Positions 1,154 to 41,506 of a stretch of DNA of 46,848 nt are shown here, one piece after another (the first letter of the stretch is position 1; each line of letters opens with the position of its first letter). Made by a program: the position numbers and the translations under genes. The stretch lies in assembly GCA_045807325.1 (NCBI GenBank), contig JBJMHP010000195.1, forward strand, positions 1 to 46,848. The letters run 5' to 3'. The notes beneath the pieces are model-generated. The model was not told where the DNA came from. It searched no databases and worked only from the letters and a program-made list of their open reading frames with translations. Origin of the DNA: Actinomycetes bacterium (lineage in GTDB: Bacteria; Actinomycetota; CALGFH01).

Positions 1154-1170
1154 GCCGGCCACGGGGCAGT

Positions 1171-1211
1171 TCCACAAGCAACTTGCACAAGCTGCTTGTG
1201 GATCCTACCCT
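1171..1211 (+). promoter_or_regulatory. Sigma-A-like promoter overlapped by palindromic operator(s), probably for the downstream MarR
   Basis: TTGCAC (1183-1188), N17, TACCCT (1206-1211), with ATG at 1218. Palindrome CACAAGC-T-GCTTGTG at 1186-1200, a degenerate copy at 1173-1187, and outer inverted repeat TCCACAAGCA/TGCTTGTGGA. Confidence 0.7.
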
Positions 1212-1217
1212 TGGAGC

Positions 1218-1664
1218 ATGCCCGACACCTCACCCGCGGACCCGCCGGCGCTGCGGCTGGCCATGGCCATCGCCCGGGTGCGGGCCCGCCTGCGGGAGAT
1301 CGACCGCTCCGGGTCGATGGGGCTCACCCTCTCGCAGCTGGGCATCCTCAACCGCCTGCGCCGCGACGGGCCGGCGACCGCGGCCTCCCTCGCCGCCGCC
1401 GAGCACGTCAGCCAGCAGGCGATCGCCCAGAGCCTCACCGGCCTGAAGCAGGCCGGGCTGGTCGAGTCGACGCCCGACCCCGCCGACCGGCGCAAGTGCC
1501 TGCTCGAGGTGACCGACGCCGGTCACGCCCTGATCGGGTCGATCCTCGCCTCCCGCAACGCCTGGCTGGTCCGGGCGGTCGAGCAGACCGTCGGCCCCGG
1601 CGAGCGGGACGCCCTCGACAGCGCGATCGCCCTGCTGGAACGGCTCGCCGACGCGCCGGCATGA
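1218..1664 (+). CDS. MarR-family transcriptional regulator
   Basis: LTLSQLGILNRL...LAAAEHVSQQAIAQSLTGLKQAGLVESTPDPADRRKCLLEVT winged-helix pattern. ATGA overlap with the next gene. Confidence 0.9.
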   Translation: MPDTSPADPPALRLAMAIARVRARLREIDRSGSMGLTLSQLGILNRLRRDGPATAASLAAAEHVSQQAIAQSLTGLKQAGLVESTPDPADRRKCLLEVTDAGHALIGSILASRNAWLVRAVEQTVGPGERDALDSAIALLERLADAPA

Positions 1665-11286: not shown

Positions 11287-12279
11287 TTGCGTATCGAGTC
11301 GTCGGTCACCTCCCTGTCATGGATTCCGCTCGGGGCGATGGAAGGCGCCGGCACCGAGCTGGCGTTCCGCTTCGGCATCGCCCACTACGACCCGCCACCG
11401 CCCGAGGTCCTGGAGGACCTGGAGGCCCTCAAGGCCGCCGACCGCTTCCGGTTCGCCAACGACCTGCGGGCCTGGATCGAGGTCGACGACGACGGCCGAA
11501 TCGCCGACCACGGCCACGCCGGCGGCGGCCAGATCGGCAGCACCACTATGCGCCTGGGCGCGCGCGAGCTGACCTTCGCGGCCACGCCGTTCCCGGACCT
11601 GCGGCCCAAGCCGGAGCTCGGCGACGGCTGGGTCCGGTTCGTGCAGACGGCCGGCGGCCGCACCGGGGCGCCGGCGCCGCGGCGCATCCGCCGCCCGCCC
11701 TTCATCCAGTGGATCGCCCCGGCCGCCTGGTCGACCCTGGCCCTGACCGTCCACACCGACGGCCGGGCCACCTACGAGGTGGTCGGGGCCAGCCCCTTCC
11801 CGCGCCACTGGATCTACGACCACGACGGCAAGCTGGTCGCCAAGACGGGCCGGATCGACTTCGACCGCTGGTTCCGGGAGACCGAGATGCAGCGGACCCC
11901 CTGGGGCGACGAGGACTCGCCAGCGCTGGTCGTGGCCGCCGAGACGGCCCTGGAGCGGCGGCTGTCGGTGGCCATCATCGACGGCAAGCCCTCGTTCCGG
12001 CGCCTGGAGACCGGCGAGACCCTGGTCGAGCAGGGCGACACCGGCACCGACGTCTATCTCCTCTTCGACGGCGTGCTCATGGTGGAGGTCGACGGCAAGC
12101 CGGTGACCGAGCTCGGGCCGGGGGCCGTGGTCGGCGAGATGGCCCTGCTCGAGGGGGGCCGGCGCACGGCCACCCTGCGGGCGGTCACCCCCTGCCGGAT
12201 CGCCGTGGTCGCCGGCGAGCAGCTGGACCGGGACGCGCTGGCCGAGGTGGCGCGGGGCCGCCGGGAGCCCGACGACTGA
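11287..12279 (+). CDS. Cyclic-nucleotide-binding domain protein with an uncharacterised ~245-aa N-terminal domain
   Basis: TTG start after AAGGAG. C-terminal CNBD (LVEQGDTG...GAVVGEMALLEGGRRTAT). No HTH. Confidence 0.85.
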   Translation: MRIESSVTSLSWIPLGAMEGAGTELAFRFGIAHYDPPPPEVLEDLEALKAADRFRFANDLRAWIEVDDDGRIADHGHAGGGQIGSTTMRLGARELTFAATPFPDLRPKPELGDGWVRFVQTAGGRTGAPAPRRIRRPPFIQWIAPAAWSTLALTVHTDGRATYEVVGASPFPRHWIYDHDGKLVAKTGRIDFDRWFRETEMQRTPWGDEDSPALVVAAETALERRLSVAIIDGKPSFRRLETGETLVEQGDTGTDVYLLFDGVLMVEVDGKPVTELGPGAVVGEMALLEGGRRTATLRAVTPCRIAVVAGEQLDRDALAEVARGRREPDD

Positions 12280-12281
12280 CC

Positions 12282-15143: not shown

Positions 15144-16040
15144 ATGCCCGGCAGCCGGCTCGCCGCCACGCAGAAAAGCACGATCGTTCGGTCATTCGTG
15201 GTGCTGGAGCGGGTCGCCCCCGCCGCCGGCGCCCGCTGGGCCGAGACCCTCTGGTTCACCGTCCCCAGGGCCAGGGCCCGTCCCGAGCGGCCGGCGCCCC
15301 CCGGCCGCCCCTTCCAGGTCCAGGTCAACGGCCACACGGTCGCCGGCGAGGCCTGGGGCGCCGGGCCGGTGGTGTACCTGGTCCACGGCTGGGGCGGCTG
15401 GGGCCGGCAGCTGGAGGCGTTCGTGGGCCCGCTGGTCGAGCGGGGCCACCGGGTGGTCACCTTCGACGCCCCCAGCCACGGCGCCTCCGACCCCGGCCCC
15501 GCGGGCCCGGGCCGCGGCACCATCCTCGAGTTCGCCGACGCCCTGACCGCGGTGGCGGCGGCCAACGGCCCGGCCCACGCCCTGGTCGCCCACTCCCTGG
15601 GCGCCACCGCGGCCGCGTACGCCATGCGCGGCGGGCTGCGGGTCGAGCGGGCGGCGTTCGTCGCCCCCATGGCCGACCCCCTGCCCTACACCCACATCTT
15701 CGCCGGCCGCCTCGGCTTCGGCGAGCGGGTCCGGACCCGCCTGGTGGACCGGATCGAGCGCCGGGTCGGCATGCCCCTGTCGGCCTTCGACGTCCCGGCC
15801 ATGGCCGGCGAGGTCCCCACCCCGCCCCTGCTGCTGGTCCACGACCGCCAGGACGCCGAGACGGGCTGGTCCGACAGCGCCGCCATCGCCCGCTCCTGGC
15901 CACACGCCCGGCTGGTCACCACCGGCGGCCTCGGCCACCGCCGCATCCTCCGCGCCCCGGCGGTGGTGACCGAGGTGGTGGAGTTCGTTGCCGAGCCGGT
16001 GGCCGCCCGCCCGGCCGGCCCGGCCCCGGCCCGCTCCTGA
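15144..16040 (+). CDS. Alpha/beta hydrolase
   Basis: VHGWGG, FDAPSHG, nucleophile elbow AHSLG, HDRQD and GLGHRRIL. RBS AAGGAG. Confidence 0.9.
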   Translation: MPGSRLAATQKSTIVRSFVVLERVAPAAGARWAETLWFTVPRARARPERPAPPGRPFQVQVNGHTVAGEAWGAGPVVYLVHGWGGWGRQLEAFVGPLVERGHRVVTFDAPSHGASDPGPAGPGRGTILEFADALTAVAAANGPAHALVAHSLGATAAAYAMRGGLRVERAAFVAPMADPLPYTHIFAGRLGFGERVRTRLVDRIERRVGMPLSAFDVPAMAGEVPTPPLLLVHDRQDAETGWSDSAAIARSWPHARLVTTGGLGHRRILRAPAVVTEVVEFVAEPVAARPAGPAPARS

Positions 16041-16206
16041 CCCTCAGGCCCGCACGACCAGGACCGTCTCCAGGGTCGGGTCGAGGCGCCGGCCATGCGG
16101 CTGCCCGCGTGGGCCTCGTCCCGGAGGGCCTCCAGCAGGTCGGTGGTGATCGGCTCGTGGGGGGCAAGAAGGCGTCACGGGGTGTCGTGCGGCACAGGCC
16201 AGGGGG

Positions 16207-16443
16207 CTAGGGGGAAGGCGGGGCTTCCTCGGGCGTCCCGGTCGACCCCGGGGGCCGGCCGCGGCTGCGGATCCGCTCGAAGGGGGTGTGGCAGGCGGTG
16301 CAGATCCAGGAGGAGGTCATCACCGTGGGGCCGACCATGCCGACCTGCTCCACCTGGTCGGAGTCGCACCAGGGGCAGGTCACGCCGGCGTCGTCGCCGC
16401 CGGCGGGTCCAGGCGGCGCTGGAGGGGGTTCCATCGGTGCCAT
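16207..16443 (-). CDS. PaaD C-terminal-like zinc-ribbon protein
   Basis: VTCPWCDS...GPTVMTSSWICTACHTPFERIR matches the CxxC...CxxC..PFE tail of PaaD. Start uncertain (16443 or 16434). Confidence 0.7.
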   Translation of the reverse strand: MAPMEPPPAPPGPAGGDDAGVTCPWCDSDQVEQVGMVGPTVMTSSWICTACHTPFERIRSRGRPPGSTGTPEEAPPSP

Positions 16444-17114
16444 GGTAGGTCCTGGTCCTCCAGCGGCTCCCGGGCGATGCCGGCGGCGTCCAGCACCGGC
16501 CCGACCCGCCCCAGGTAGCGGCGGCGCAGCTCGTGGTTGTCGTGGCCAAGGACGCCCCGGCCACGCAGGACCTCGACCCCGCGCTCTCCCGGCCGGCCGA
16601 ACCAGCACAGCAGCTCCGGGAGGGACTCGTCGACGCGGGCCTGGAGCTGGCCGCGGCCGCCGTGGAGGCCGACCAGCTCCCGCACCCGGCCCTCGGCGAA
16701 GTCCCGGTGGAACGCCTCCTCCTCCAGCATCCGCGGCACCCGCCTGGCCAGGGCGGCGTAGTCTCCGCCAGCCAGCGCCTCCAGCATGACGGTCACGGCG
16801 GTGTCGACCAGCAGCAGGGCGGCGACCGCGTGCGACCAGGTCGGGAAGGGCCGGTCGAGCAGGGACACGCGGTAGGCGCGGGACCGCTCGGCCGGGTCGA
16901 CCGGGCCGGGGAACGGCAGCTCGCCGAGCAGCGGGTACAGCACCCGGGCCTGGCCGAGCTCGCCCTGGGCGACGGCCGCGCAGGCCACCCCGACCTCGAG
17001 GCTGGGCGACCCGACGGCCCACCCCGACAGGTGCCGGCCGAGCCAGTACTTGTTGTCGCCCAGGACCAGCAGGAGGTTGACCAGCGCCGGGGCGGTGGGG
17101 TCGTGGTCAGCCAC
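16380..17114 (-). CDS. PaaC-like ferritin-fold (structural) subunit of an aryl-CoA epoxidase
   Basis: LGDNKYWLG...W...PSLE...AQGELGQAR...EEEAFH. PaaA/PaaC fold with degenerate iron ligands. Confidence 0.78.
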   Translation of the reverse strand: MADHDPTAPALVNLLLVLGDNKYWLGRHLSGWAVGSPSLEVGVACAAVAQGELGQARVLYPLLGELPFPGPVDPAERSRAYRVSLLDRPFPTWSHAVAALLLVDTAVTVMLEALAGGDYAALARRVPRMLEEEAFHRDFAEGRVRELVGLHGGRGQLQARVDESLPELLCWFGRPGERGVEVLRGRGVLGHDNHELRRRYLGRVGPVLDAAGIAREPLEDQDLPWHRWNPLQRRLDPPAATTPA

Positions 17115-17289
17115 CGCCGACGACCCAGTGGACGGCCCGCTCGGGGACCAGCACCAGCTCGACCCAGCGGTCGCCGTAGCGCTCCAGGGCGGCCGCGGCC
17201 GCGGCGGCGTCGTCGTCGGCCTCGACCGTGCCCTGGTGCTCCAGCGGCTCCGGGTAGGCGGTGCGGCCGAGCACCCGGTAGCGCTCCAC
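17107..17289 (-). CDS. PaaB-like small subunit (second copy)
   Basis: YRVLGR...PLEHQGTVEADDDAAAAAAALERY...ELVLVPERAV resembles PaaB. Fills the operon gap with overlapping stop/start. Confidence 0.6.
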   Translation of the reverse strand: MERYRVLGRTAYPEPLEHQGTVEADDDAAAAAAALERYGDRWVELVLVPERAVHWVVGGG

Positions 17290-17300
17290 GCCCCGCTCCC

Positions 17301-17498
17301 CTACTCCGGGACGATCACGGGGACGACGGCCGAGCGGGGGGCGACGAACATCTCCTGCCAGCGCCGCTCGTCGTACAGCATGAAGGCGAACACCTTGGCG
17401 TCGCTGGCCCCGGCGGCCTGCACCGTGCCAACGTGGTGGGCCCGGGCCTCGCGGTCGTGGCGGGCGAACACCTCCCAGACCTCGGCCGGGGTGTCCAC
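17301..17498 (-). CDS. PaaB-like small subunit
   Basis: VWEVFAR...HHVGTVQA...A...YDER...MFVAPRSAV, the PaaB pattern. Confidence 0.75.
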   Translation of the reverse strand: MDTPAEVWEVFARHDREARAHHVGTVQAAGASDAKVFAFMLYDERRWQEMFVAPRSAVVPVIVPE

Positions 17499-17501
17499 GG
17501 C

Positions 17502-17807
17502 TCAGGTCACCCCGAGGGCGCGAAGGGCGAGGCGGCCCTCCTCGGTCAGGTCCTGGCGGCTCCAGGGCTCGAACAGCTCCTCGACCTCGACGCCGGTCAC
17601 GCCCTCCAGGCGGCCCAGCCGGGCCTGGACGTCCTCGATGAGCACGTCGGTGCAGGGGCAGGCGATCGAGGTGAAGGTGATGCCGACGGTGACCGTGCCG
17701 CCCTGGACGCGGACCGACCGGACCAGACCCAGGTCGACGATGCCGACCGGCAGCTCCGGGTCCTGGACCTCGGCCAGGGCGGCCCACACGGCGGCCTCGG
17801 CGACCAT
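17502..17807 (-). CDS. DUF59/SufT metal-sulfur cluster assembly factor (PaaD N-terminal-like)
   Basis: VWAALAEVQDPELPVGIVDLGLV...TFTSIACP...PWSRQDLTEEGR. Confidence 0.85.
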   Translation of the reverse strand: MVAEAAVWAALAEVQDPELPVGIVDLGLVRSVRVQGGTVTVGITFTSIACPCTDVLIEDVQARLGRLEGVTGVEVEELFEPWSRQDLTEEGRLALRALGVT

Positions 17808-17809
17808 GG

Positions 17810-18745
17810 TCAGCCGCCCTCGGCCGCCAGCTGGCGCCGGCCCCGCTGGATGAGGCCGACGAACTCCTCGTTGGCCGGGCCGCGGCGCCGCCACCGGGCC
17901 AGCACCTCGTCCCAGGTGACCGCCCCGCCCTCGACGTCCCAGCGCTTGGCGTCCTCGTCGAAGCGCATCGGGAACGGGCAGTCGACCACGTACTGGCCGG
18001 TGGCGGTGTCCAGGTGGGCCGGGACCTCGAACCCCAGCCCCTCACACAGCGGCACCGTGGCCGACATCCAGGCCTGGCGCAGCTGGTCGTTGGTCAGGCC
18101 CTTGAGCTGGTAGCCGACCTGCTCCTTGTGCTGCTTGAGGTCGTCGGGCAGCCCGAACCACTCCAGGGTGAGCACGAACATCCAGTCGATCGCCCGCTGC
18201 ACCGCCGCCTTCTTGTCCGGGTCGTCGGACAGGATCTTCATCCACCGCTCGCCGTGGCGCAGGTGGAAGGTCTCCTCCCGGTCGACCTTGACCAGGGCCC
18301 GCTTCCACGGTCCGTAGCTGGTGTGCTGGTAGATGTCGCTGAGCAGCACGAACCCGGCCCGGTCGTAGAAGGCGTTGGCGATCACCAGCTCCTCCCACCG
18401 GTCCAGGGGCACGTCGAAGGCGTACGGGTACTTGAACGCCTTGGGCTCCCGCTCGTAGATCAGCTGGTCGGTGTCCACCCCAAGGTCCCGCAGCATCCGG
18501 TACCCGATGTGGGCGTGGCCCAGCTCGTCCTGCACGATGCTGGTCGCCGACATGTAGGAGTTGATCGAGGGCGCGTCCCTGGCCGCCCGCAGGTACGCCG
18601 GCGCACTGATCAGCTCGGTGTCCGCCGACACGATCAGCGTCCGCTTGAGCCCCTCGACATAGGCCTCGGTGGCGGTGTCCGGCCCCTCGATCAACCTGCC
18701 GCTCCGCAGCCGCTCGAGCAGCTCCCCCTCCGACCTCAACGCCAT
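17810..18745 (-). CDS. PaaA-like diiron catalytic subunit of an aryl-CoA epoxidase
   Basis: Diiron ligands ADTE, QDELGH, YDRAG and REETFHLRHG. Also SYGPW and TNDQLRQAW. Confidence 0.85.
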   Translation of the reverse strand: MALRSEGELLERLRSGRLIEGPDTATEAYVEGLKRTLIVSADTELISAPAYLRAARDAPSINSYMSATSIVQDELGHAHIGYRMLRDLGVDTDQLIYEREPKAFKYPYAFDVPLDRWEELVIANAFYDRAGFVLLSDIYQHTSYGPWKRALVKVDREETFHLRHGERWMKILSDDPDKKAAVQRAIDWMFVLTLEWFGLPDDLKQHKEQVGYQLKGLTNDQLRQAWMSATVPLCEGLGFEVPAHLDTATGQYVVDCPFPMRFDEDAKRWDVEGGAVTWDEVLARWRRRGPANEEFVGLIQRGRRQLAAEGG

Positions 18746-18782
18746 GCCCGCTCCCTCCCGCGGGCCCCATGATCGCTTCGTC

Positions 18783-18796
18783 TGACCGGTCGGTCA
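18783..18796. promoter_or_regulatory. Putative TetR operator upstream of the epoxidase genes
   Basis: TGACCGGTCGGTCA near-palindrome, with a second copy at 25742-25755. Confidence 0.6.
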
Positions 18797-18877
18797 ACCG
18801 CCGGCTGGGAGCGGGAGCAGCCGTTCTGCGATCCACCCGGCGGCCTCGCCCCCGACCGCTTCCAGGTCATCGGTGGG

Positions 18878-19732
18878 CTACCCGAGGCCCCGGTAGACCC
18901 GCAGGGCGTTGCCGCCCAGCACCGCTCGGAGGGTGTCGTCGTCCAGGTCGAGTTTGGTGATGGCGCGGGCGTTGGTGGCGATGCCGGGGGCGCCGGGCCA
19001 GTCGCTGCCGAAGATGCATTTTCTGGCCAGGCGGTTGAGGTCGAAGCGGGAGAAGTAGGCGGGGAGGCGGGAGGGGGGGAGGCCGGAGAGGTCGATCCAG
19101 ACGTTGGGGCGGGCCAGGGCGAGGAAGGCGGCGGCGTCGTACCACCAGCCGCGGCCGCCGTGGGCCAGGACCACGGTGAGGTCTGGGACGTGCTGGATGA
19201 GCTCGTCGATGGGGGCGGGGTCGCCGAAGCGGTTGACGGCGCCGGGGAAGGTGCTGGTGCCGGTGTGGAACACCACCGGCACCCCCAGCTCGGCGCAGCG
19301 CTGGTAGACCAGGTAGAGGACGCCCTCGGTGGGTGAGAAGCCGCCGTGGACCGGGTGCAGCTTGACCGCGGCCGCGCCAAGGGCGAGCTGGCGGCCCAGC
19401 TCGTCGGTGATCGGGTGGTGCAGGTGGGGGTTGAGGCTGGCGATGGGCCGGAACCGGCGCGGGTTGTGCTCGACCAGGGGCAGGAGGTCCTCGACCGGCT
19501 GGATCCCGGTGACCCGGGGGCTGTACTCGCTCATCAGCAGGGCGACGTCGACGCCCTCGGCCTCCAGGTAGGCGTCGAAGCGGTCGGGACGCAGCGTGCC
19601 CGCCTCGTCGTACAGGTCGTCGAAGGGGATGCCGCGGCCGAACTCGAGCGCCCAGCGCTGCCAGTCGACCTTGAGGGTGGGCCGCCGGGCCGGGTGCAGG
19701 TGGACGTCGACCAGTGGGATGCCGTCGATCAT
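18878..19732 (-). CDS. Amidohydrolase_2 family metal-dependent hydrolase/decarboxylase
   Basis: DVHLH, KLHPVH, FHTG, AHGG and FGSDWP motifs. Start overlaps the ligase stop. Confidence 0.88.
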   Translation of the reverse strand: MIDGIPLVDVHLHPARRPTLKVDWQRWALEFGRGIPFDDLYDEAGTLRPDRFDAYLEAEGVDVALLMSEYSPRVTGIQPVEDLLPLVEHNPRRFRPIASLNPHLHHPITDELGRQLALGAAAVKLHPVHGGFSPTEGVLYLVYQRCAELGVPVVFHTGTSTFPGAVNRFGDPAPIDELIQHVPDLTVVLAHGGRGWWYDAAAFLALARPNVWIDLSGLPPSRLPAYFSRFDLNRLARKCIFGSDWPGAPGIATNARAITKLDLDDDTLRAVLGGNALRVYRGLG

Positions 19733-21315
19733 CCGGTCGTCCCCGCGGGCGGGACCGCGGCCGTGCCAGAGTCCCCCGCCGGGGTGCCGCGCAGCTTGAA
19801 GCGCTGGATCTTGCCGGTGGTGGTCTTGGGCAGCTCGTCGGTGTACTCGACGATGTGGGGGAACTCGTGGCGCTGGAGCCGCTGCTTGCACCAGGCCTGG
19901 AGCTCGGGGGTGAGCCGGCCGGCGTCGGCCTCGGGGGCGACGACCACCGCCTTGATGCGGGTCAGCCCGTCGACCCGGACCTGGACGACCGCGCACTCGT
20001 AGATGGCCGGGTGCTCGGCCAGGGCCTGCTCCATCTCCACCGGCGACACCCACAGGCCGGCGACCTTGAGCATGTCGTCGACCCGGCCCTGGTGCCACCA
20101 GAACCCGTCGGCGTCCTGGCGGTAGCGGTCGCCGGTCCAGGTCCAGTCCCCCAGCACCGTCTGCTTGGTCTTCTCGTGCTGGCGCCAGTAGCCGGCCAGG
20201 GCGCTGTCGCCGCGGACGTACAGGGTGCCGGTCTCGCCCTGGGGGACGGGCTCGCCCTCGTCGCCGAGCAGCTTGAGGTCGTAGCCGGGCACGGCCACCC
20301 CGCTGGACCCGGGCCGCAGCCGATCGGTGGTGTTGGAGCAGAAGATGTGCAGCATCTCGGTCGAGCCGATGCCGTCCAGGATGACCAGGCCGTAGGTGTC
20401 GTGCCAGCGCCGCCAGATCTCGGCCGGCAGCGACTCGGCGGCCGAGACGCACAGCCGCACCGACGACAGGTCCCGCCCCTTGGCCTCGGGCGTGGCCAGC
20501 ATGGCGTTGTAGAGGGTCGGGACCGAGAACAGCAGGGTCGGCCGGTGGCGCTCGACGGCGTCCAGGACCCGGTCGGGGGCGGGCCGGCCGTACAGCTGCA
20601 CCGAGGTCGCCCCGATCCAGAACGGGAACGACAGGCTGTTGCCGAGGCCGTAGGCGTGGAACAGCTTGGTGGTCGACAGGCACAGGTCGTCGGTGCCGAT
20701 GCCGAGCACCTGGCTGGCGTAGGTCCGGCAGGTCCAGGGCAGGTCGTGCTGGAGGTGGACGACCCCCTTGGGCCGCCCGGTGGAGCCGGAGCTGTACAGC
20801 CAGAAGGCGGCGTCGTCGCGGTGGGTCGGGGCCGGGGCCAGCTCGCCGGCGTGCTCGGCCAGCAGGTCCTCCAGGGCGTGCGCGTCCTCGCCCTGGCCGC
20901 CGGCCACCAGCAGCTGGACCGGCTGGTCGCGGCCGGCCAGGGCCTCGCGGACCTTGGGGAGCAGGTCCAGGTCGGCCACCACCGCCCTGGCCTCGCTGTC
21001 GGCGAGCAGGTAGCGGTAGTCGTCGGGCTTGAACAGCGGGTTGAGCGGGACCGGGACCATCCCGGCCCGGATGGCACCAAGGAACACCGCCGGGAAGGCC
21101 GGGGTGTCGTCCATGACCATCAGCACCCGCTGCTCGCGCTGGACGCCGAGCGCGCCCAGGGCCCGCCCGGCAGCGCAGGCCATGGCCAGCAGCCGCTCGT
21201 AGCTGACCTCGCCGTACTCGCCGACGATGGCCGCCTTGGCCCCGCGCCCGGCCTCGAGGTTGGCGTCCAGCAGGGTGCTGACGTTGTAGCGCTCAGGTAG
21301 CTCGGACGATGTCAT
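19729..21315 (-). CDS. Benzoate-CoA ligase family aryl-CoA ligase
   Basis: AFWLYSSGSTGRPKGVVH, KLFHAYGLGNSL, DGIGSTEMLHIF and TTTGKIQRFKLR, typical of BadA/BclA-type enzymes rather than PaaK. Confidence 0.9.
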   Translation of the reverse strand: MTSSELPERYNVSTLLDANLEAGRGAKAAIVGEYGEVSYERLLAMACAAGRALGALGVQREQRVLMVMDDTPAFPAVFLGAIRAGMVPVPLNPLFKPDDYRYLLADSEARAVVADLDLLPKVREALAGRDQPVQLLVAGGQGEDAHALEDLLAEHAGELAPAPTHRDDAAFWLYSSGSTGRPKGVVHLQHDLPWTCRTYASQVLGIGTDDLCLSTTKLFHAYGLGNSLSFPFWIGATSVQLYGRPAPDRVLDAVERHRPTLLFSVPTLYNAMLATPEAKGRDLSSVRLCVSAAESLPAEIWRRWHDTYGLVILDGIGSTEMLHIFCSNTTDRLRPGSSGVAVPGYDLKLLGDEGEPVPQGETGTLYVRGDSALAGYWRQHEKTKQTVLGDWTWTGDRYRQDADGFWWHQGRVDDMLKVAGLWVSPVEMEQALAEHPAIYECAVVQVRVDGLTRIKAVVVAPEADAGRLTPELQAWCKQRLQRHEFPHIVEYTDELPKTTTGKIQRFKLRGTPAGDSGTAAVPPAGTTG

Positions 21316-21341
21316 CTGGGCCTCACTCCCCCGCCGTCCCT

Positions 21342-21416
21342 CCGGGGCACCCCCTGGGGTTCCCGGATCCCTCCCGATGCACCGGGGCACCCCCCTGGGG
21401 TTCCCCGGACCCCTCC
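21342..21416 (+). repeat. Tandem pair of the short palindromic dispersed element (intergenic)
   Basis: CCGGGGCACCCCC(C)TGGGGTTCCC(C)GGA(T/C)CCCTCC twice. The junction CCCTCCCGATGCACCGGGG matches the metG insert CCCCCCCGATCCACCGGGA. Confidence 0.7.
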
Positions 21417-21422
21417 GGCGCC

Positions 21423-22856
21423 TCAGTGCCGGACGACCACCGACTTGGTCTCCTGGTAGTAGTCGAGCGCCTCGATGCCGTGCTCCTTGCCGTAGCCGCT
21501 CTGCTTGAGCCCGCCGAACGGCAGCTCGTCGTAGACCTTGTTGATCGAGTTGACCCAGGTGTAGCCGGCCTCCAGCCGCTCCGCGGCCAGGTTGGCCCGG
21601 TGCAGGTCGCGGGTCCAGATGGCCGAGCCGAGCCCGAACGGCGAGTCGTTGGCCCGCTCGATCGCCTCGTCCAGGCCGCCGACCCGCCAGATTGGCAGGA
21701 CCGGGCCGAAGGTCTCCTCGACCGCCACCCGGGCGTCGGCCGGCGGCTCCAGCAGCAGGGTCGGGGCGTAGAAGAAGCCGCGGTCGTAGACCTCGCCCTG
21801 CGGGCGGGTGGCGCCACAGAGGACCTTGGCCCCGCGGTCGACGGCGTCGGCCACCTGCTCCTCGATCAGGGCCCGCTGACGGGCCGAGTGCAGCGGCCCC
21901 ATCAGCACCCGCTCGGCCGTGCCAGGCCCGACCCGGAGCTTGGCCGCCTTGGCGACCAGCCGCTCGACGACCTCGTCGGCGACCGTGTCGAACACGAACA
22001 GCCGCTTGGTGGCCAGGCAGGCCTGGCCACAGTTGAAGAACCGGCCGACGCTGGCCGCGCTGACGGCCCGGTCCAGGTCGGCGTCGTCGCAGATGATCAT
22101 CGGGTCGGAGCCGCCCAGCTCCAGGGTGACCCGCTTGAGGTGCTCGGCGGCGGCGGCCATGGTGCGCCGCCCCACCGGGGTGGAGCCGGTGAAGGCGACC
22201 TTGCGGACCCGTGGGTGGCGGACCAGGGCGTCGCCGGCGACCGGCCCGGTGCCGGTGACGACGTTGAAGGTGCCGGCCGGCAGGCCGCCCTCACAGAGCA
22301 GCTCGGCCAGGCGCAGGGTGGTCAGCGGGGTCGTCTCGGCCGGCTTGGCCACCACCGTGTTGCCGGCCACCAGGGCCGGGCCGAGCTTGTTGGCCAGCAG
22401 GGTGGTCGGGAAGTTCCAGGGCACGATCGCCCCCACCACCCCGAGGGGGCGGCGCAGCACCACCCCGTAGGCCCCCTCGTCCAGGTTGGGCACGTACCCG
22501 CCGCGGAGGCTCTTGGCCAGGCCGGCGTAGTGCTCCAGGGTCTCCAGGCAGCGGTCGATCTCCAGCCCGGCCTCCCGCAGGGGCTTGCCCTGCTCGCGGG
22601 TGAGGGAGGCGGCCAGCTCCCCGGCCCGGCCGCGGGCATGCTCGGCGGACCGGCCGAGGAGCTCGCCGCGGCGGGCGGCCGGGGTCGCCCACCAGCCCTC
22701 GAAGGCGGCCTGGGCGGCGGCCACGGCCGCGTCCACATCGGCCGGGGTCCCGGCCGGGACCTCCTCGAAGGCCTCCCCGACGGCCGGGTCCAGCACCTGG
22801 AGCCGGTCGCCGCCCGTCCCCTCATACGGGCCGCCGTCGACAAACATCGTCCTCAC
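21423..22856 (-). CDS. NAD(P)-dependent aldehyde dehydrogenase
   Basis: PWNFP, KPAETTP, FTGS, LELGG, NCGQAC, EETFGP and PFGG motifs. Confidence 0.93.
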   Translation of the reverse strand: MRTMFVDGGPYEGTGGDRLQVLDPAVGEAFEEVPAGTPADVDAAVAAAQAAFEGWWATPAARRGELLGRSAEHARGRAGELAASLTREQGKPLREAGLEIDRCLETLEHYAGLAKSLRGGYVPNLDEGAYGVVLRRPLGVVGAIVPWNFPTTLLANKLGPALVAGNTVVAKPAETTPLTTLRLAELLCEGGLPAGTFNVVTGTGPVAGDALVRHPRVRKVAFTGSTPVGRRTMAAAAEHLKRVTLELGGSDPMIICDDADLDRAVSAASVGRFFNCGQACLATKRLFVFDTVADEVVERLVAKAAKLRVGPGTAERVLMGPLHSARQRALIEEQVADAVDRGAKVLCGATRPQGEVYDRGFFYAPTLLLEPPADARVAVEETFGPVLPIWRVGGLDEAIERANDSPFGLGSAIWTRDLHRANLAAERLEAGYTWVNSINKVYDELPFGGLKQSGYGKEHGIEALDYYQETKSVVVRH

Positions 22857-23467
22857 GGCTCGGCGCCCAGCAGGAGCGGCAGGTTCCGGTGGCAGAGGGC
22901 CTTGTACTCGGCGTGGGAGGTCCTCCAGTCCTCGCGCTGCAGCCAGACGAGGAAGGTGCCCTCGATCAGGGCCCGCATCGCCGCCGCAGCCGCCACCGGG
23001 TCCTCGACCCGGAGCCCGCCCGAGGCCACGCCGTCGCGGATGACCTCCTCGTACAGGCCGTTGATGATCTCGTGGGCCATGCCCGGCAGCTGCCCGAAGG
23101 ACGGGACCCGGGCCGCGTGCTCGATCAGGTCCAGGTACAGCAGGTAGAACTCGCGGTTCTGCTCGGGGCCGACGAAGACGGCGTCGACCAGGGCGGCGAT
23201 GGCCTGGCCGGGGTCGGCGGCGCCGGCGATGCGCCGGCGGATGCGGGCCTCGGTCCGCTCGAGGGCCCAGCGCATGGTGACCAGGAACAGGTGCTCCTTG
23301 CTCTTGAAGTAGTACAGGACCATGCCCTTGCTGACCCCGGCCTCGTCGGCCACGTCCTGGAGCGACAGGCGGTGGCTGCCCTGGCGGGTGATGACCTGGT
23401 AGGCGCTGCGGACCAGGGCGTAGGCGCGGGGCGACAGCGTCTCGTCGCCGACCTGGCGGGTGGCCAC
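22853..23467 (-). CDS. TetR-family regulator (BetI-type C-terminus)
   Basis: LSLQDVADEAGVSKGMVLYYFKSKEHL HTH. Start approximate. Confidence 0.9.
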   Translation of the reverse strand: MATRQVGDETLSPRAYALVRSAYQVITRQGSHRLSLQDVADEAGVSKGMVLYYFKSKEHLFLVTMRWALERTEARIRRRIAGAADPGQAIAALVDAVFVGPEQNREFYLLYLDLIEHAARVPSFGQLPGMAHEIINGLYEEVIRDGVASGGLRVEDPVAAAAAMRALIEGTFLVWLQREDWRTSHAEYKALCHRNLPLLLGAEP

Positions 23468-23468
23468 C

Positions 23469-24239
23469 TCAGCGCCCACTGAACTTGGGTGGGCGCTTCT
23501 CGGTGAAGGCGGTCATGCCCTCCCGGGCGTCCTCGGAGGCGAACAGGGCGGCCAGCTCCTCCAGCTCGCGGTCGAGGGCGTCGGGCAGGGGCCGGTCCAG
23601 GCCGTCGTTGACCACCCGGGTGATGGCGGCCACGGCCAGCGGGGCGCCGCCGGCCAGGCTGGCGGCCAGGTCGGCCACGGCCTGGTCGAACCCGCCGGCC
23701 GGGACCAGCCGGTCGACCATGCCCAGGCGCTCGGCCTCGGCCGGGGTGACGGTGCGGCCGGTGGTCATCAGCTCCAGGGCCCGGCCGCGGCCGATCAGGC
23801 GGGGCAGCCGCTGGGTGCCGCCGGTACCCGGGAGCAGGCCAAGGGTGGCCTCGGGCAGCCCGATCCGGTAGCGGCCCTCGGCGGCCACGCGGATGTCGCA
23901 GGCCAGGGCGATCTCGTAGCCGCCGCCGAGGGCGTGGCCGGCGATGGCGGCGACGAACAGGGGCGCCTCGGCCGCGAAGCGGTCCAGGACCCGGTGGGCG
24001 CGGCGGCACATGACCATGTTGTCGTCGGCCGACCGCTCCAGGAACGCCTTGACGTCGGCCCCGGCCGAGAAGAACCTCTCGCTGGCCGACCGGACCACCG
24101 CCACCGCCACCTCGGCCTCGGCGACCTGGCCGATGGCCTGGTCCAGTTCCTCCAGGAAGCCGGCGTCGTAGCTGTTGGCCGGCGGCCGGTCCAGCGTGAT
24201 CCAGCCGACCCGGTCCCTGACCTCGGCGGTCACCGCCAT
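23469..24239 (-). CDS. Enoyl-CoA hydratase/isomerase (crotonase family)
   Basis: FFSAGAD, GHALGGGYEIALACD and GLPEATLGLLPGTGG (both catalytic Glu present). Confidence 0.93.
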   Translation of the reverse strand: MAVTAEVRDRVGWITLDRPPANSYDAGFLEELDQAIGQVAEAEVAVAVVRSASERFFSAGADVKAFLERSADDNMVMCRRAHRVLDRFAAEAPLFVAAIAGHALGGGYEIALACDIRVAAEGRYRIGLPEATLGLLPGTGGTQRLPRLIGRGRALELMTTGRTVTPAEAERLGMVDRLVPAGGFDQAVADLAASLAGGAPLAVAAITRVVNDGLDRPLPDALDRELEELAALFASEDAREGMTAFTEKRPPKFSGR

Positions 24240-24249
24240 GGAATCCCCC

Positions 24250-25692
24250 TCACTGGGACAGGCCGCCGACGACGACCGACTTCGCCTCGGTGTACTCGGC
24301 CAGCGCCTCCAGCCCGTGCTCGCGGCCCAGGCCGCTCTGCCTGGTGCCGCCGAAGGGCAGCTCGTCGTAGCCGTAGTGGAGCTGGTTGACCCAGGTGACG
24401 CCGGCCTCCAGCTCGCGGGTGGCCCGGTCGATGGCCACGGCGTCGCGGGTCCAGATCGAGGAGCCGAGCCCGTAGGCGGTGTCGTTGGCCCGCGCGATGG
24501 CCTCGTCCAGGTCGTCGACCCGCCACACGGGCAGGACGGGCCCGAACACCTCCTCGGTGGCCAGGCGCGAGTCGGGCGGGGCGTCGACCACCACCGCCGG
24601 GGAGAAGAAGTGGCCCGGCCCGTCGGCCGCCTCGCCGCCGACCACGACCTTGGCCCCCCGGTCGACCGCGTCGGCGAGCTGGGCGACCAGCAGGTCGCGC
24701 TGGGCGGCGGTGTGCAGCGGCCCGATCCGCAGCCTCGGCTTCTCGGCCTTGGTGGAACCGGGGCCGGGCTCGTAGCGCCCGACCCGTCCGGCCAGCTGCT
24801 CGACGAAGGCGTCGTAGACCTCGGCCTGGACGAAGGCCCGCTTGGGGGCCAGGCAGGCCTGGCCGCAGTTCCAGTAGCGGCCGATCTGGACGTTCTTGAC
24901 GGCCGCGTCCAGGTCGGCGTCGGCCAGGACGATGGTCGGGTCGGAGCCGCCCAGCTCCAGGCTGACGTGCTTGAGGGCGGGGCCGGCGACCTCCATGATC
25001 CGGCGTCCGGTGGCCGTCTGGCCGGTGAAGGCGACCCGGCGCACCCCCGGGTGGGCGGCCAGCGCCTCCCCGGTCGCCGGCCCGCCGATGACCACGTTGA
25101 GGACCCCCGGGGGCAGGCCGGCCTCGGCGGCCAGCCGGGCCACGGCCAGGGTGGTGAGCGGGGTGGTCTCGGCCGGCTTGGCGACCACGGTGTTGCCGGC
25201 GGCCAGGGCCGGCCCGAGCTTGTTGCCGAGCAGGGTCAGGGGGAAGTTCCAGGGGGTGATGGCGCCGACCACCCCGAGGGGACGGCGCACCACCAGCCCG
25301 TAGGCCGGGCCGAACTGGCCGGGCAGCTCCTGGTAGGTGCCGCGGACCTTGGTGGCCGCCTCGGCGTAGTAGCGCAGCCCGCCCAGGAAGTGCCGAAGCT
25401 CCCCCTGGGCCTCCAGGGTCGGCTTGCCCTGCTCGCGGGTGAGCAGCCCGACCAGGTCGCCGGCGGCCCCCTCGACGGCGTCGGCCAGCGCCCGCAGGTG
25501 CCCGGCCCGGTCAGCCACGTCGACCCGCCGCCAGGAGGTGAACGCCTCGGCCGCGGCGGCCACGGCGGCGTCGACGTCCTCGGTGGTCGCCTCGGATACC
25601 TCGTCGACGGCCTCCCCTGAGGCCGGGTCGGTCACGGTCCGCCGCCCGCCGGACCCGGCCGTGGCCGTCCCGTCTATCCACAGATCGGCCAC
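24250..25692 (-). CDS. NAD(P)-dependent aldehyde dehydrogenase (paralog of 21423-22856)
   Basis: PWNFP, FTGQT, LELGGSDP, WNCGQAC, EEVFGP and YDELPFGG motifs. Confidence 0.93.
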   Translation of the reverse strand: MADLWIDGTATAGSGGRRTVTDPASGEAVDEVSEATTEDVDAAVAAAAEAFTSWRRVDVADRAGHLRALADAVEGAAGDLVGLLTREQGKPTLEAQGELRHFLGGLRYYAEAATKVRGTYQELPGQFGPAYGLVVRRPLGVVGAITPWNFPLTLLGNKLGPALAAGNTVVAKPAETTPLTTLAVARLAAEAGLPPGVLNVVIGGPATGEALAAHPGVRRVAFTGQTATGRRIMEVAGPALKHVSLELGGSDPTIVLADADLDAAVKNVQIGRYWNCGQACLAPKRAFVQAEVYDAFVEQLAGRVGRYEPGPGSTKAEKPRLRIGPLHTAAQRDLLVAQLADAVDRGAKVVVGGEAADGPGHFFSPAVVVDAPPDSRLATEEVFGPVLPVWRVDDLDEAIARANDTAYGLGSSIWTRDAVAIDRATRELEAGVTWVNQLHYGYDELPFGGTRQSGLGREHGLEALAEYTEAKSVVVGGLSQ

Positions 25693-25741
25693 GATGGTCC
25701 TCCCGCCGCTCGGCGATGCGGACGATATCGTGCCACCTGAC

Positions 25742-25755
25742 TGACCGGTTGGTCG
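25742..25755. promoter_or_regulatory. Putative TetR operator at the head of the catabolic operon
   Basis: TGACCGGTTGGTCG, 12/14 identical to 18783-18796. Confidence 0.55.
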
Positions 25756-25767
25756 ACCCGGTGGCCG

Positions 25768-26532
25768 CTACCTGGGGGCCATGCGGATGGCGCCGTCGAG
25801 GCGGATGGTCTCGCCGTTGAGCATGCGGTTCTCGACGATGTGGCGGACCAGGGCGGCGTACTCGGTGGGGTGGCCGAGGCGGGAGGGGAACGGGACCTGG
25901 GCGCCGAGGGAGGCGCGGACCTGGTCCGACATGGCGGCCAGCATGGGGGTGTCGAAGATGCCGGGGGCGATGGCCAGCACCCGGATGCCGTGGCGGGCCA
26001 GCTCGCGGGCGACGGGCAGGGTCATGCCGACCACCCCGGCCTTGGAGGCGGAGTAGGCGGCCTGGCCGATCTGGCCGTCGAAGGCGGCCACCGAGGCGGT
26101 GTTGACGATCACGCCCCGCTCGCCGTCCTCACCCGGCTCGTTGGCGGCCATGGCCTGGGCGGCCAGCCGGGTCACGTTGAAGGTGCCGACCAGGTTGACC
26201 TGGATGGCGGCCATGAACCGGGCCAGCGAGTGCGGGCCGTCGCGGCCCAGGACCCGCTCGGCCGGGGCGATCCCGGCGCAGCTGACGGCAACGTGCGGCC
26301 CGCCCAGCTCGAGCGTGAGGGCCACGGCGGCGCCCACGCTGGCCTCGTCGGTGACGTCGGTGGGCACGAACCGGGCCCGCTCCCCCAGCTCGGCCGCGAC
26401 CCGCTCGCCGCGCTCGGTGTCCACGTCGGCCACCACCACCGACCCGCCGTGCTCGACCACCATCCGGGCGGTGGCCGCCCCCAGCCCCGACCCGCCCCCG
26501 GTGACCAGCACCGTCCTTCCCGCGATCTCCAC
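25768..26532 (-). CDS. 3-hydroxyacyl-CoA dehydrogenase type II (SDR, HSD17B10-like)
   Basis: [29 protein letters not shown] and [17 protein letters not shown] start after GGAGGAGG. Confidence 0.92.
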
Positions 26533-26560
26533 CCCGCCCTCCTCCGGTCGGCCCGGCGGC

Positions 26561-27142
26561 TCAGCCGGAGCCGAGCAGCCAGCTCGGCCGGTTGCCCTCA
26601 CGCCACTTGAGGCTGCAGCCCATGCTGGGCCGGTGGGGCTCGGGGACCGGCTGGCCGGCCAGGACCCGGTCGAGGGCGTCGCGCAGCAGCGCGCCGGTCA
26701 CCGGCTGGCCGTTGCGGGGGGTGCTGTCGTCGAAGGCGCCGCGGTAGGCGAGCCGGCGGTCGGCGTCGTAGACGAACAGGTCGGGGGTGCACATGGCCCG
26801 GTAGTCGGCCGCGACCTGCTGGCCCTCGTCCAGCAGGTAGGGGAAGCCGAAGCCGGCCCGGCGGGCCTGCTCGGCCATGCCGGCCGGGCCGTCCTCGGGG
26901 TAGGCGTCGAGGTCGTTGCTGTTGATGGCGACCGCGGCCAGGTCCCGGGCGGCGTAGTCGGCCACCACCTCGCCGAGCCGGCGCTCCACGTGGCGCACAT
27001 ACGGGCAGTGGTTGCACAGGAACATCACCAGCAGCGCACGCCCGTCCAGGTCGGCGAGCTTCACGGTGGTCCCGTCGAACGACGGCAGCTCGAAGTCGTG
27101 GGCCGGGGTGCCGAGCGGCACCATGAGTGAGGATGCGGCCAT
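26561..27142 (-). CDS. Thioredoxin-fold AhpC/TSA family protein
   Basis: [22 protein letters not shown] and SMGCSLKW motifs. Confidence 0.92.
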
Positions 27143-27215
27143 GTGCTGATCTCCTGGGGCGCTGCGGTCGGGTTGTGCTTCCGGTTCATGGTGGACGGAC
27201 CTTACGCTAGCGGAC

Positions 27216-28334
27216 ATGGCCTACCGCTTCACGCCGGCGGACCGGGGGGCGTTCAAGCGCTGCCGCCGGCAGTGGGACTTCGGGGCCAGGGAGCGCCACA
27301 ACTACGAGCCCGCCGACGGGCCCGCCGCCCCCGACCTGGAGCTGGCCGTCCGTGACGCCCTGGCCGTCTACTACTTCCCCGGCATGTGGGACTGGCAGCG
27401 CTCGGTGGTGCTGCCGCTGGTCCTCCAGGGGCTGGCCCGGTCCCTGGGCGGCCAACCGGCGGCCGGCGGCCAGGCCGCCGGCGAGGCCCTGCTGCGGCGC
27501 TACTTCGAGTGGGCGCCCGGCGTCGACCGCTTCTCCCCCATCCAGGTCGAGTGCCGCCTCGAGGTGAACCTGCCCGACCCGGCCGGCGGGGGCCGGGAGC
27601 TGGTCCTGCCCGACGGGCGGCCGATCCGCTACCAGGGCCGGGTCGACCTGCTGGCCGGGGACGAGCACGACCGCTACTGGGTGGTGGCCCACCGGCTGGT
27701 CGACCGGTTCGGGACCGCCGAGGAGCTGCTGCTGGACGAGGAGCTGGTCGCCGCCTGCTGGGCCATGGAACGGTTCTACCCGGGCATGCGGATCGCCGGG
27801 ACGATCCACAACGAGCTCCGACCGGCGAATCTGCCGGTCGGAATGGATGAACTGCCGCCGAAGGCGGCTCCACGCCGTTCTCTACCCTGGCCGCGGAGCC
27901 GCCATGAACGAGGCATCCCCCAGCACGAGGCCAGCGGCGGCGGGCGGTCCCTGCCCTATGCCCGCCGTGGCGGCGTCCGCGCCGGGCCACCCGGCCCGGC
28001 GGCGGTGGCCAGCGAGGGCGACGGCCGGTTCCGCCGGACCCGGATCCAGCGCGGCCGGGCCGAACTGGAGGCGGCGGGGGCCAGGCTGGCCGCCGAGGCC
28101 CTGGACATGGTCGACCCGGGCCTGCGCCTGTACCCCAACCCCGCCCCCGAGCACTGCGGCAGCTGCCAGTTCGTGGCCCCGTGCCTGGCCGTCGAGCGCG
28201 GCGGCGACGTGGCCGCCGTGCTCGCCGCCGCCTACCGTGACCGCGGCCCGGAGCGGGCCGAGCCGGGACGGCTCGGCGCCGCCACCTGGGGCACCGGCCG
28301 GGGCGCGGCCCCGCCCCGGTTCGACCGCGGCTGA
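27216..28334 (+). CDS. PD-(D/E)XK superfamily, Cas4/AddB-like Fe-S protein with a degenerate nuclease motif
   Basis: FKRCRRQW N-terminal Cys, GRVDLL...WVVAHR and C-terminal HCGSCQFVAPC. -10 TACGCT lies 7 nt before ATG (leaderless). Confidence 0.75.
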   Translation: MAYRFTPADRGAFKRCRRQWDFGARERHNYEPADGPAAPDLELAVRDALAVYYFPGMWDWQRSVVLPLVLQGLARSLGGQPAAGGQAAGEALLRRYFEWAPGVDRFSPIQVECRLEVNLPDPAGGGRELVLPDGRPIRYQGRVDLLAGDEHDRYWVVAHRLVDRFGTAEELLLDEELVAACWAMERFYPGMRIAGTIHNELRPANLPVGMDELPPKAAPRRSLPWPRSRHERGIPQHEASGGGRSLPYARRGGVRAGPPGPAAVASEGDGRFRRTRIQRGRAELEAAGARLAAEALDMVDPGLRLYPNPAPEHCGSCQFVAPCLAVERGGDVAAVLAAAYRDRGPERAEPGRLGAATWGTGRGAAPPRFDRG

Positions 28335-41498: not shown

Positions 41499-41506
41499 CG
41501 GTCCTC

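Follow-up and report, generated by a model that had tools for sequence, protein, structure and literature searches.

A conserved gene cluster that joins a divergent Paa-type oxygenase to a benzoate-CoA ligase family enzyme in an Actinomycetes genome

The 46,848 bp stretch of DNA analyzed here, called the window below, is contig JBJMHP010000195.1 of an Actinomycetes bacterium (GTDB lineage Actinomycetota, CALGFH01; assembly GCA_045807325.1). It carries 12 tightly packed genes, all on the minus strand and running from position 25692 down to 16207, in which a divergent PaaABCD-like oxygenase is encoded together with a ligase of the benzoate-coenzyme A (CoA) ligase family (Table 1). Reading frames in this 75% GC sequence were picked by third-position GC content (GC3) and then scanned with Pfam and NCBIfam profiles; all 12 frames are open, and GC3 is 0.96–0.99 in the 11 that were scored, the short Zn ribbon gene being below the size filter of the GC3 script. 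In order of transcription the genes encode an aldehyde dehydrogenase (ALDH-1), a crotonase, a TetR regulator, a second aldehyde dehydrogenase (ALDH-2), the ligase, an Amidohydro_2 hydrolase, a PaaA-like protein, a DUF59 protein, two PaaB-like proteins, a PaaC-like protein and a Zn ribbon. Their spacing ranges from overlaps of 4–8 nt to a gap of 132 nt, and the PaaC-like and Zn ribbon genes overlap by a GTGA start/stop. An earlier interpretation made from the nucleotide sequence alone (the sequence-only reading) had listed this co-oriented, tightly coupled set, and its gene list and end points are exact, except that the ligase is better started at 21315 than at 21390.

The PaaA-like protein is homologous to the catalytic diiron subunit of the PaaABC(D)E oxygenases of E. 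coli and Pseudomonas, with 26–28% identity in Foldseek alignments and 29% by tblastn. Its diiron motifs (E..., DExxH, D, EExxH) can be aligned with the E. coli PaaA motifs and do not vary among 24 relatives, yet it reaches 109.6 bits against the PaaA equivalog model TIGR02156, whose cut-off is 280. An AlphaFold model (pLDDT 88) matches the PaaA structures 4ii4, 3pw8 and 4iit in Foldseek with TM-scores of 0.79–0.83 normalized to the query and 0.82–0.86 normalized to the target. BoxB, in contrast, is matched with query-normalized TM-scores of 0.49–0.57 and E about 1e-3, no BoxB chain is matched in sequence at E ≤ 1, and the BoxB model TIGR03225 has no match in this genome or in five other carrier genomes. 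Kinship of the PaaA-like protein with BoxB is therefore rejected, and its description in the sequence-only reading, as a divergent PaaA relative with intact metal ligands that is neither canonical PaaA nor BoxB, holds.

The sequences of the partner proteins show clear homology to PaaB, PaaC and PaaD, though all remain under equivalog level. The PaaC-like protein scores 55 bits against TIGR02158 (cut-off 133). The DUF59 protein and the Zn ribbon score 65 and 34 bits against the PaaD model TIGR02159 (cut-off 108), and because they cover its N- and C-terminal parts (positions 1–88 and 93–144 of 146), we regard them as a PaaD split into two genes. PaaB-like-1 and PaaB-like-2 are paralogs (hhalign probability 99.7, E 2.6e-26) that align with the canonical PaaB core with probabilities of 96 and 92, respectively, where the set built for PaaB-like-2 may include PaaB-like-1 cross-matches from loci with a single PaaB; the two might pair into one bridging unit. 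The window thus has the homologous diiron subunit, PaaC-like partner, PaaB-like bridging protein and both parts of PaaD known from PaaABC(D)E, a CoA-thioester substrate is implied for it as well, and ALDH and crotonase are also encoded. It differs in its separate clade (see below), in scores far under the NCBI equivalog cut-offs for A, C, B and D, in the split PaaD, in two half-length PaaB paralogs instead of one PaaB, in the order A-D(N)-B1-B2-C-D(C), in having neither PaaE nor a fused PaaZ, in a benzoate-CoA ligase family enzyme in place of PaaK, and in the added Amidohydro_2 gene. As a side observation, PaaB-like-1 has a sub-threshold match (29 bits, cut-off 57) to TIGR04031, the Htur_1727 family of radical SAM (rSAM)-partnered candidate ribosomally synthesized and post-translationally modified peptides (RiPPs), and this candidate peptide family may in fact be PaaB-like.

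The ligase matches TIGR02262, the benzoate-CoA ligase family, with 588.1 bits (cut-off 375.25) over profile positions 2–506 of 508, and the PaaK model TIGR02155 is not among the NCBIfam matches listed for it. Its best solved relatives are benzoate-CoA ligases (2v7b, E about 1e-133 to 7e-133; 4eat, E 1e-130), and its aryl-pocket motifs are nearly unchanged in comparison with theirs, so the assignment as BadA-type and not PaaK that had been made from the sequence is upheld.

Table 1. Features of the window, with the 12 cluster genes first, in order of transcription
Feature	Position	Strand	Evidence or remark
ALDH-1, 480 aa	24250–25692	-	PF00171, 513 bits
Crotonase/enoyl-CoA hydratase, PaaF-like, 256 aa	23469–24239	-	PF00378, 178 bits
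TetR-family regulator	22853–23467	-	TetR_N + TetR_C_6 (BetI-type C domain)
ALDH-2, 477 aa	21423–22856	-	PF00171, 542 bits
AMP-forming ligase, benzoate-CoA ligase family, 528 aa	19729–21315	-	TIGR02262, 588 bits
Amidohydro_2 metal-dependent hydrolase, 284 aa	18878–19732	-	PF04909, 135 bits
PaaA-like catalytic diiron subunit, 311 aa	17810–18745	-	PF05138, 196 bits
DUF59 protein, N-terminal half of split PaaD	17502–17807	-	PF01883, 74.6 bits
PaaB-like-1, 65 aa	17301–17498	-	PF06243, 23.8 bits, under gathering score 27
PaaB-like-2, 60 aa	17107–17289	-	No Pfam match; GC3 0.97; hhalign paralog of PaaB-like-1
PaaC-like structural subunit, 244 aa	16380–17114	-	PF05138, 90 bits
Zn ribbon, 58 aa, CxxC...CxxC, C-terminal half of split PaaD	16207–16383	-	PF23451 Zn_ribbon_PaaD, 50.8 bits
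Promoter-like site, TTGACC, 17 nt, GATCAT	18769–18797	-	In 132-nt gap before PaaA-like gene; consensus match only
Imperfect palindrome	25739–25754		Upstream of ALDH-1
GC-rich inverted repeat	21382–21408		Operator search
Short-chain dehydrogenase/reductase (SDR)	25768–26511		Rejected as cluster member
Redoxin	26561–27124		Rejected as cluster member
Alpha/beta hydrolase, convergent	15198–16040		Rejected as cluster member
Fusion protein, 951 aa	38209–41064	-	FAD-linked oxidase domains + 4Fe-4S dicluster + CCG domain
Zn-ribbon protein, iron-type alcohol dehydrogenase, metallo-beta-lactamase (MBL) hydrolase	41100–43639		Neighbors of the 951-aa fusion
cNMP-binding protein, then 736-aa GAF-adenylate/guanylate cyclase	11338–14492	+	

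Homologs of the PaaA-like protein are numerous (4308 at E ≤ 1e-10 in a large protein collection), and the best 120 are 68–95% identical to it, with named records that include Thermus, an Armatimonadota metagenome-assembled genome (MAG) and a Gaiellaceae MAG. Among species-representative genomes 376 relatives were found, and the best 80 loci of these were used. The order of the oxygenase module is kept almost throughout these 80; tblastn finds PaaC in 78, DUF59 in 77, PaaB-like-1 in 75, the Zn ribbon in 62 and PaaB-like-2 in 38. An IQ-TREE phylogeny of 88 rows, with PaaC sequences as the outgroup, includes 77 of the loci, the other three being left out for a short or stop-containing match. It places the PaaA proteins of E. 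coli, P. fungorum and the canonical copy of our own genome in one clade (SH-aLRT 99) and all PaaA-like proteins, on long branches, in a second one (SH-aLRT 93); the PaaA-like protein is thus separate from canonical PaaA and not nested within it. Inside the second clade, the window falls in a 33-row sub-clade (98) that also takes in the Thermus plasmid copy and all loci with an orthologous ligase, and in a 45-row Chloroflexota clade the oxygenase is followed by crotonases only.

The gene neighborhoods follow this division. For the counts, loci L005–L037 and L051 (the tree clade plus the three left-out loci, placed by identity) were taken as the window's group, a locus was considered informative with at least 8 kb of flank on both sides, and a ligase was counted at 55% identity or more. 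Among informative loci of the group, the ligase is present in 10 of 10, ALDH-1 in 10 of 10 (57–91% identity), ALDH-2, the crotonase and TetR (44–92% identity) in 9 of 10 each and the amidohydrolase in 8 of 10, while an orthologous ligase occurs in 0 of 25 informative loci among the remaining 46; these counts are descriptive and not a test, since related genomes are not independent. More distant ligases of the same family (47–50% identity) occur in three of the 46 other loci (L073, L082 and L079). ALDH-1 adjoins the crotonase in all relatives, and ALDH-2 lies directly upstream of the ligase there as it does in the window. Carriers span Actinomycetota, Rubrobacteria, Chloroflexota, Armatimonadota, Thermus plasmids and haloarchaea. 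The ligase-oxygenase link is thus conserved across phyla, and the recurrence of this gene set in distant phyla shows that the arrangement is not a matter of chance.

Nearer to the window the distribution is patchy. In a sample of 40 related genomes, five of the 10 from the same genus have the PaaA-like gene, as do seven of 20 from the same family and one of 20 from other families. At least half of the sampled words of the stretch are held by 14 sequencing runs from seven studies, 13 of them soil metagenomes and one labeled metagenome. Short pieces of every gene are covered, at 95–99% likeness, by contigs from RNA libraries (four runs from at most three samples and three studies), which come from relatives, could reflect DNA carry-over and are no proof of transcription.

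The window copy is the leanest of those compared, and in this genome it might be incomplete or in the course of decay, without a functional pathway: it has no second crotonase, transporter, reductase, thiolase or dehydrogenase of the kinds that relatives keep nearby, nor their PaaY-like, MBL, BenE or ABC transporter genes. The second crotonase of relatives, which has lost the first catalytic Glu, finds at best a 37–41% match elsewhere in the genome and so has no ortholog here. Against decay, all 12 frames are open with high GC3 and tight coupling, three close relatives (L005, L009 and L010) share the same lean layout, and the near-identical pieces in soil RNA libraries, in spite of possible DNA carry-over, point weakly the same way. 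We consider such decay highly improbable.

Relatives are also found on plasmids of Thermus thermophilus, seven of which carry a PaaA-like copy at 72–73% identity (annotated paaA_2 in four). On pHB5018c the oxygenase part consists of PaaA-like, DUF59, small hypothetical, PaaC-like and crotonase genes, followed by TetR, crotonase, ALDH and ABC transporter genes, and then by genes for an ALDH, a "benzoate-CoA ligase family protein", a thiolase, an amidohydrolase, an adenine-deaminase-like protein, MaoC, PaaI, SDR and an alpha/beta hydrolase. The Thermus proteins are 63.5% (ligase), 67% (ALDH-2), 59% (ALDH-1), 62.5% (crotonase) and 56% (amidohydrolase) identical to those of the window. On this 159 kb plasmid the cluster (loci L094/L096; record at 119–152 kb) lies between IS3 and other transposase genes, and it looks like a mobile catabolic island. 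The canonical paa genes of T. thermophilus HB8 are chromosomal (TTHA0963–0973, as given in the consulted part of PMC6651687).

Haloarchaeal plasmids encode more remote PaaA-like proteins (50–55% identity). The clusters of Haloterrigena and Haladaptatus, for which the equivalogs NF041867–NF041869 exist, share with the window the split PaaD, the short PaaB, the order A-DUF59-B-C and a nearby acyl-CoA synthetase whose best family is TIGR02262 (371 bits, just below cut-off). Unlike the window, whose proteins are far below the cut-offs of these equivalogs, they add a 2Fe-2S ferredoxin, CoA-transferase subunits, two UbiD decarboxylases, an MBL hydrolase and, in Haloterrigena, a formate dehydrogenase, and they have neither Amidohydro_2 nor a second PaaB. 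In Haloterrigena turkmenica pHTUR01 (L095, 6157–24843) the PaaA-like cluster is flanked by the two CoA-transferase subunits, both UbiD genes, the MBL gene and the formate dehydrogenase, a set that would fit conversion of a dicarboxylic aromatic acid to an aroyl-CoA with release of formate. A still more distant relative with a split PaaD lies on Agrobacterium tumefaciens pAtCG920 (L099, 2018–15385; PaaA-like 37–39% identical to that of the window). Its neighbors are a 917-aa AMP-binding protein, a CoA-transferase, an ABC transporter, a PaaI thioesterase, an SDR and a "coniferyl aldehyde dehydrogenase", and it possibly serves another substrate class.

The genome that contains the window also has a canonical Paa system. 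A 5.5 kb contig (C75, locus L085) carries a TetR-PaaA-PaaB-PaaC-PaaD operon at 513–3639 on the minus strand, whose PaaA reaches 382.5 bits against TIGR02156 (cut-off 280) and whose PaaC and PaaD are above their equivalog cut-offs as well (PaaB, 57 vs 85 bits); the operon is followed by an oligopeptide-type ABC ATPase gene and not by PaaE. Elsewhere, tblastn with E. coli queries finds PaaZ at 50% identity, together with one PaaG-like and one PaaK-like gene. The cluster is thus present beside the genome's own PaaABCD and PaaZ and in a genome that yields no BoxB, which agrees with the pairing without BoxB proposed in the sequence-only reading.

These findings bear on whether the cluster could be an alternative pathway for phenylacetate or another arylacetate, in which the BadA-type ligase would activate phenylacetate, the PaaA-like complex would be an isofunctional epoxidase, and the crotonase and ALDH-1 would replace PaaZ. 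The subunits are homologous to PaaA, PaaB, PaaC and PaaD, relatives have PaaG-, PaaY- (hexapeptide protein), PaaH- (dehydrogenase) and PaaJ-like genes nearby (the thiolases 53–59% identical to E. coli PaaJ), and ALDH-2 resembles phenylacetaldehyde dehydrogenases (430 bits against a model with a cut-off of 850). Canonical PaaA was not found in four of the five other carrier genomes searched, nor was BoxB in these. A crotonase with a separate ALDH ("alternative oxepin-CoA hydrolase" with PacL) is a known substitute for PaaZ (consulted part of PMC9007349), and the window has a stand-alone crotonase beside a stand-alone ALDH. That crotonase, however, reaches 123 bits with NF046063, the model for alternative oxepin-CoA hydrolase (cut-off 300), and it has both hydratase Glu residues and is PaaF/hydratase-like. 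The ligase belongs to the benzoate-CoA ligase family and has a near-identical aryl pocket, homologs of PaaK (E. coli query, tblastn) occur in just 3 of the 80 loci, the benzoate transporter BenE adjoins the cluster in three, and the window genome, that of L005 and T. thermophilus (PMC6651687, in the part consulted) also keep canonical Paa. A phenylacetate pathway therefore seems quite unlikely.

Transport genes and the ligase give clues to the substrate. In L022, L026 (Rubrobacter marinus) and L033 a BenE gene comes after the TetR gene, which favors a benzoate-like substrate; branched-chain-type ABC transporters are encoded at the flanks of the cluster in L005, L006, L010, L011, L012, L019, L020, L023 and on the Thermus plasmid. 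In the ligase motif KLFHAYGLGN, all 20 cluster-linked ligases compared, including the Thermus copy, have His at the fourth place, where two reference ligases (KLFFAYGLGN) have Phe; 17 of the 20 agree with the motif throughout, and three deviate elsewhere in it. We take this fourth position to be a residue lining the aryl pocket. The conserved exchange of Phe for His would suit a nitrogen-bearing or polar aromatic acid (an aminobenzoate, hydroxybenzoate or pyridine carboxylate), as would the anthranilate-CoA ligase 4wv3, which is nearly as close to the window ligase as the benzoate ligases are (410 vs 447 bits). Amidohydrolase-superfamily enzymes would then remove the substituent or open the hetero-ring, and both the conserved Amidohydro_2 gene and an adenine-deaminase-like Amidohydro_1 protein in the Rubrobacter and Thermus clusters speak for this. 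The window genome has no homolog of the adenine-deaminase-like protein, however, the characterized Amidohydro_2 members are decarboxylases, hydratases, lactonases and C-C hydrolases and not deaminases, and BenE points to benzoate, so that we think a polar acid unlikely. On balance we lean toward a catabolic function, in which the operon would serve to degrade an aromatic carboxylic acid in the form of its CoA thioester, with benzoate or a near ring-substituted analogue as the most likely substrate. It would then be a third CoA-dependent aerobic route of ring oxidation, and probably one that has not been described before.

For such a benzoate-type operon we infer a sequence of reactions from the gene content. 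ALDH-2 might oxidize an aromatic aldehyde to the acid, which the BadA-type ligase would convert to an aroyl-CoA. The Paa-type diiron oxygenase (the PaaA-like and PaaC-like proteins and the two PaaB paralogs) would oxygenate the ring, probably to an epoxide, for which the split PaaD may aid its assembly and a ferredoxin or reductase encoded outside the cluster would supply electrons. The sequence-only reading had proposed a distinct route of this type, with epoxidation of benzoyl-CoA or a related ester followed by a crotonase and an ALDH acting like BoxC and BoxD; its combination of a benzoate-family ligase with a non-canonical Paa-type oxygenase stands, the epoxidation keeps its conditional standing, and the BoxC role of the crotonase is not supported (below).

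An aroyl-CoA hydroxylase, giving for example a hydroxybenzoyl-CoA, with the remaining cluster peripheral, would be another use for the oxygenase, and diiron enzymes with this fold can hydroxylate. A Bacillus and haloarchaea reportedly degrade benzoate by CoA-dependent routes that pass through 3-hydroxybenzoyl-CoA and gentisate, in studies that identified no genes for them. No gene for a ring-cleavage dioxygenase lies in the cluster of the window or in those annotated relatives that were examined, though, and the conserved pair of ALDH and crotonase fits hydrolytic opening to a semialdehyde; we consider hydroxylation very unlikely.

If the ring is epoxidized, its opening has to be accounted for without an evident BoxC. 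The crotonase keeps both catalytic Glu motifs (GGGYE and LPE), as in E. coli PaaF, and its closest solved relatives are plain hydratases (PaaF 4fzw_A, E 2.6e-38), with BoxC 2W3P not among the best 60 of 173 PDB matches, so that neither a BoxC-like nor a PaaG-like function is supported. The non-aromatic product might instead be opened hydrolytically. Because no BoxC-like enzyme is apparent in the cluster, whose single crotonase is of the hydratase type, we put forward the amidohydrolase, speculatively, as a candidate ring-opening, deformylating or lactone hydrolase. The idea draws on co-occurrence and on a fold that it shares with the LigY C-C hydrolase and with hydratases: the PF04909 match (gathering score 26.4) is strong, the structural model (pLDDT 88.6) matches the uncharacterized 3irs (TM 0.76), then ACMSD, the LigJ hydratase and LigY, and H11, H13, H191 and D244 (HxH...H...D, TIM-barrel) are invariant in 30 sequences. 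Its homologs have generic names only among the best 120 listed. Where Amidohydro_2 is absent (L011, L012 and L019), an MBL hydrolase may, equally speculatively, take this part.

After ring opening, ALDH-1 might oxidize the semialdehyde-CoA in a BoxD- or PacL-like role, and the PaaF-like crotonase would hydrate an enoyl-CoA of the dehydroadipyl-CoA type toward 3-oxoadipyl-CoA; in relatives, PaaG-like isomerase, PaaH-like dehydrogenase and PaaJ-like thiolase would act at this late stage too. The resemblance to the Box pathway of Azoarcus evansii and Burkholderia xenovorans would thus lie in the first enzyme, in a putative diiron oxygenase working on a CoA ester, in an ALDH available for the semialdehyde-CoA and in the expected funnel into 3-oxoadipyl-CoA. 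The differences are that no BoxB was found in the genome (TIGR03225), that the oxygenase is multi-subunit and Paa-type, and that no BoxC-like long crotonase is apparent in the cluster. No cluster gene has a reductase or 4Fe-4S domain in Pfam as BoxA would, a result that concerns the cluster, no BoxA search of the genome having been made. The best reading of these sequences is of a system whose oxygenase resembles that of Paa and whose ligase resembles that of Box, and which would work like both pathways while being a member of neither. A bolder version, possible in our view but rather doubtful, is that this third CoA-dependent aerobic dearomatization route is widespread and that in it a Paa-type oxygenase with split PaaD and PaaB1/PaaB2 epoxidizes benzoyl-CoA and a hydrolase of the amidohydrolase or MBL superfamily, not a BoxC-type crotonase, opens the ring.

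Several observations weigh against a benzoate operon of this kind. The His that replaces Phe in every cluster-linked ligase may mean that plain benzoate is not the substrate, and BenE is present in three loci only. Ring opening is left to a candidate, the sole crotonase being PaaF-like in sequence. The cluster contains no reductase or ferredoxin gene, PaaE (E. coli query) matches in none of the 80 loci, and the best TIGR02160 match in the genome has 106 bits (cut-off 421), so that a PaaE-type reductase above cut-off is found neither in the cluster nor in the genome. The leanness of the window copy counts here too. In carriers that have no canonical PaaA, moreover, the cluster could be the sole Paa-type system and serve phenylacetate. 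Finally, canonical PaaABCE binds benzoyl-CoA only as an inhibitor, according to the consulted part of PMC4498308, and turnover by a Paa-type site would therefore require changes; titles of the structures matched by Foldseek include PaaAC crystallized with benzoyl-CoA bound.

Control of the cluster probably rests with its own TetR protein, which is also encoded in the Thermus plasmid cluster and which would sense the acid or its CoA ester. The promoter-like site before the PaaA-like gene is the sole sigma-70-like site within 15900–27400, where 0.2 are expected in shuffled sequence; this site and the palindrome upstream of ALDH-1 are possible control sites for the TetR. The operator search found no motif common to the gaps of the cluster, and an Rfam scan of the window gave no family at gathering score. 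The genes on either side were rejected as cluster members; the SDR matches in 4 of the 80 loci at 32–37% identity, and neither it nor the redoxin and the convergent alpha/beta hydrolase is conserved with the cluster. The SDR and hydrolase genes of the Thermus and Rubrobacter clusters are not orthologs of the window's. The remainder of the window holds ordinary actinobacterial housekeeping genes; we also note the 951-aa fusion protein with its neighbors, and a cyclic nucleotide monophosphate (cNMP)-binding protein followed by a cyclase (Table 1).

Two aerobic "hybrid" routes through CoA esters are known, one for phenylacetate (Paa) and one for benzoate (Box), and the consulted part of PMC4498308 describes both as strictly substrate-specific. 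Literature searches of full-text sources (titles and starts of abstracts, within a coverage that excludes subscription journals) found no description of a Paa-type oxygenase with a benzoate-CoA-ligase-family enzyme, and no characterized pathway that the cluster matches, as the sequence-only reading had supposed. A 2026 survey of Paa suggests that PaaA and PaaC be used to mark phenylacetate potential, and the part of it that was consulted does not mention this clade (PMC13186573). We conclude that the cluster represents a variant of the CoA-dependent aerobic aromatic pathways that is conserved and unannotated, probably with a benzoate-like substrate. Cultured carriers, among them Rubrobacter marinus SCSIO 52915, R. 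taiwanensis and T. thermophilus HB5018, would allow a direct test of the idea, T. thermophilus being open to genetic work. If it is true, benzoate-type acids would be degraded aerobically by a route now annotated as "phenylacetate catabolism", and surveys using PaaA and PaaC as markers would over-count phenylacetate potential. Paa-type oxygenases would vary more in their subunits than has been assumed, here with two PaaB paralogs, a PaaD in two pieces and no reductase of its own, and soil Actinomycetota, Rubrobacter, Chloroflexota and thermophiles that have no BoxB would gain a route for benzoate.

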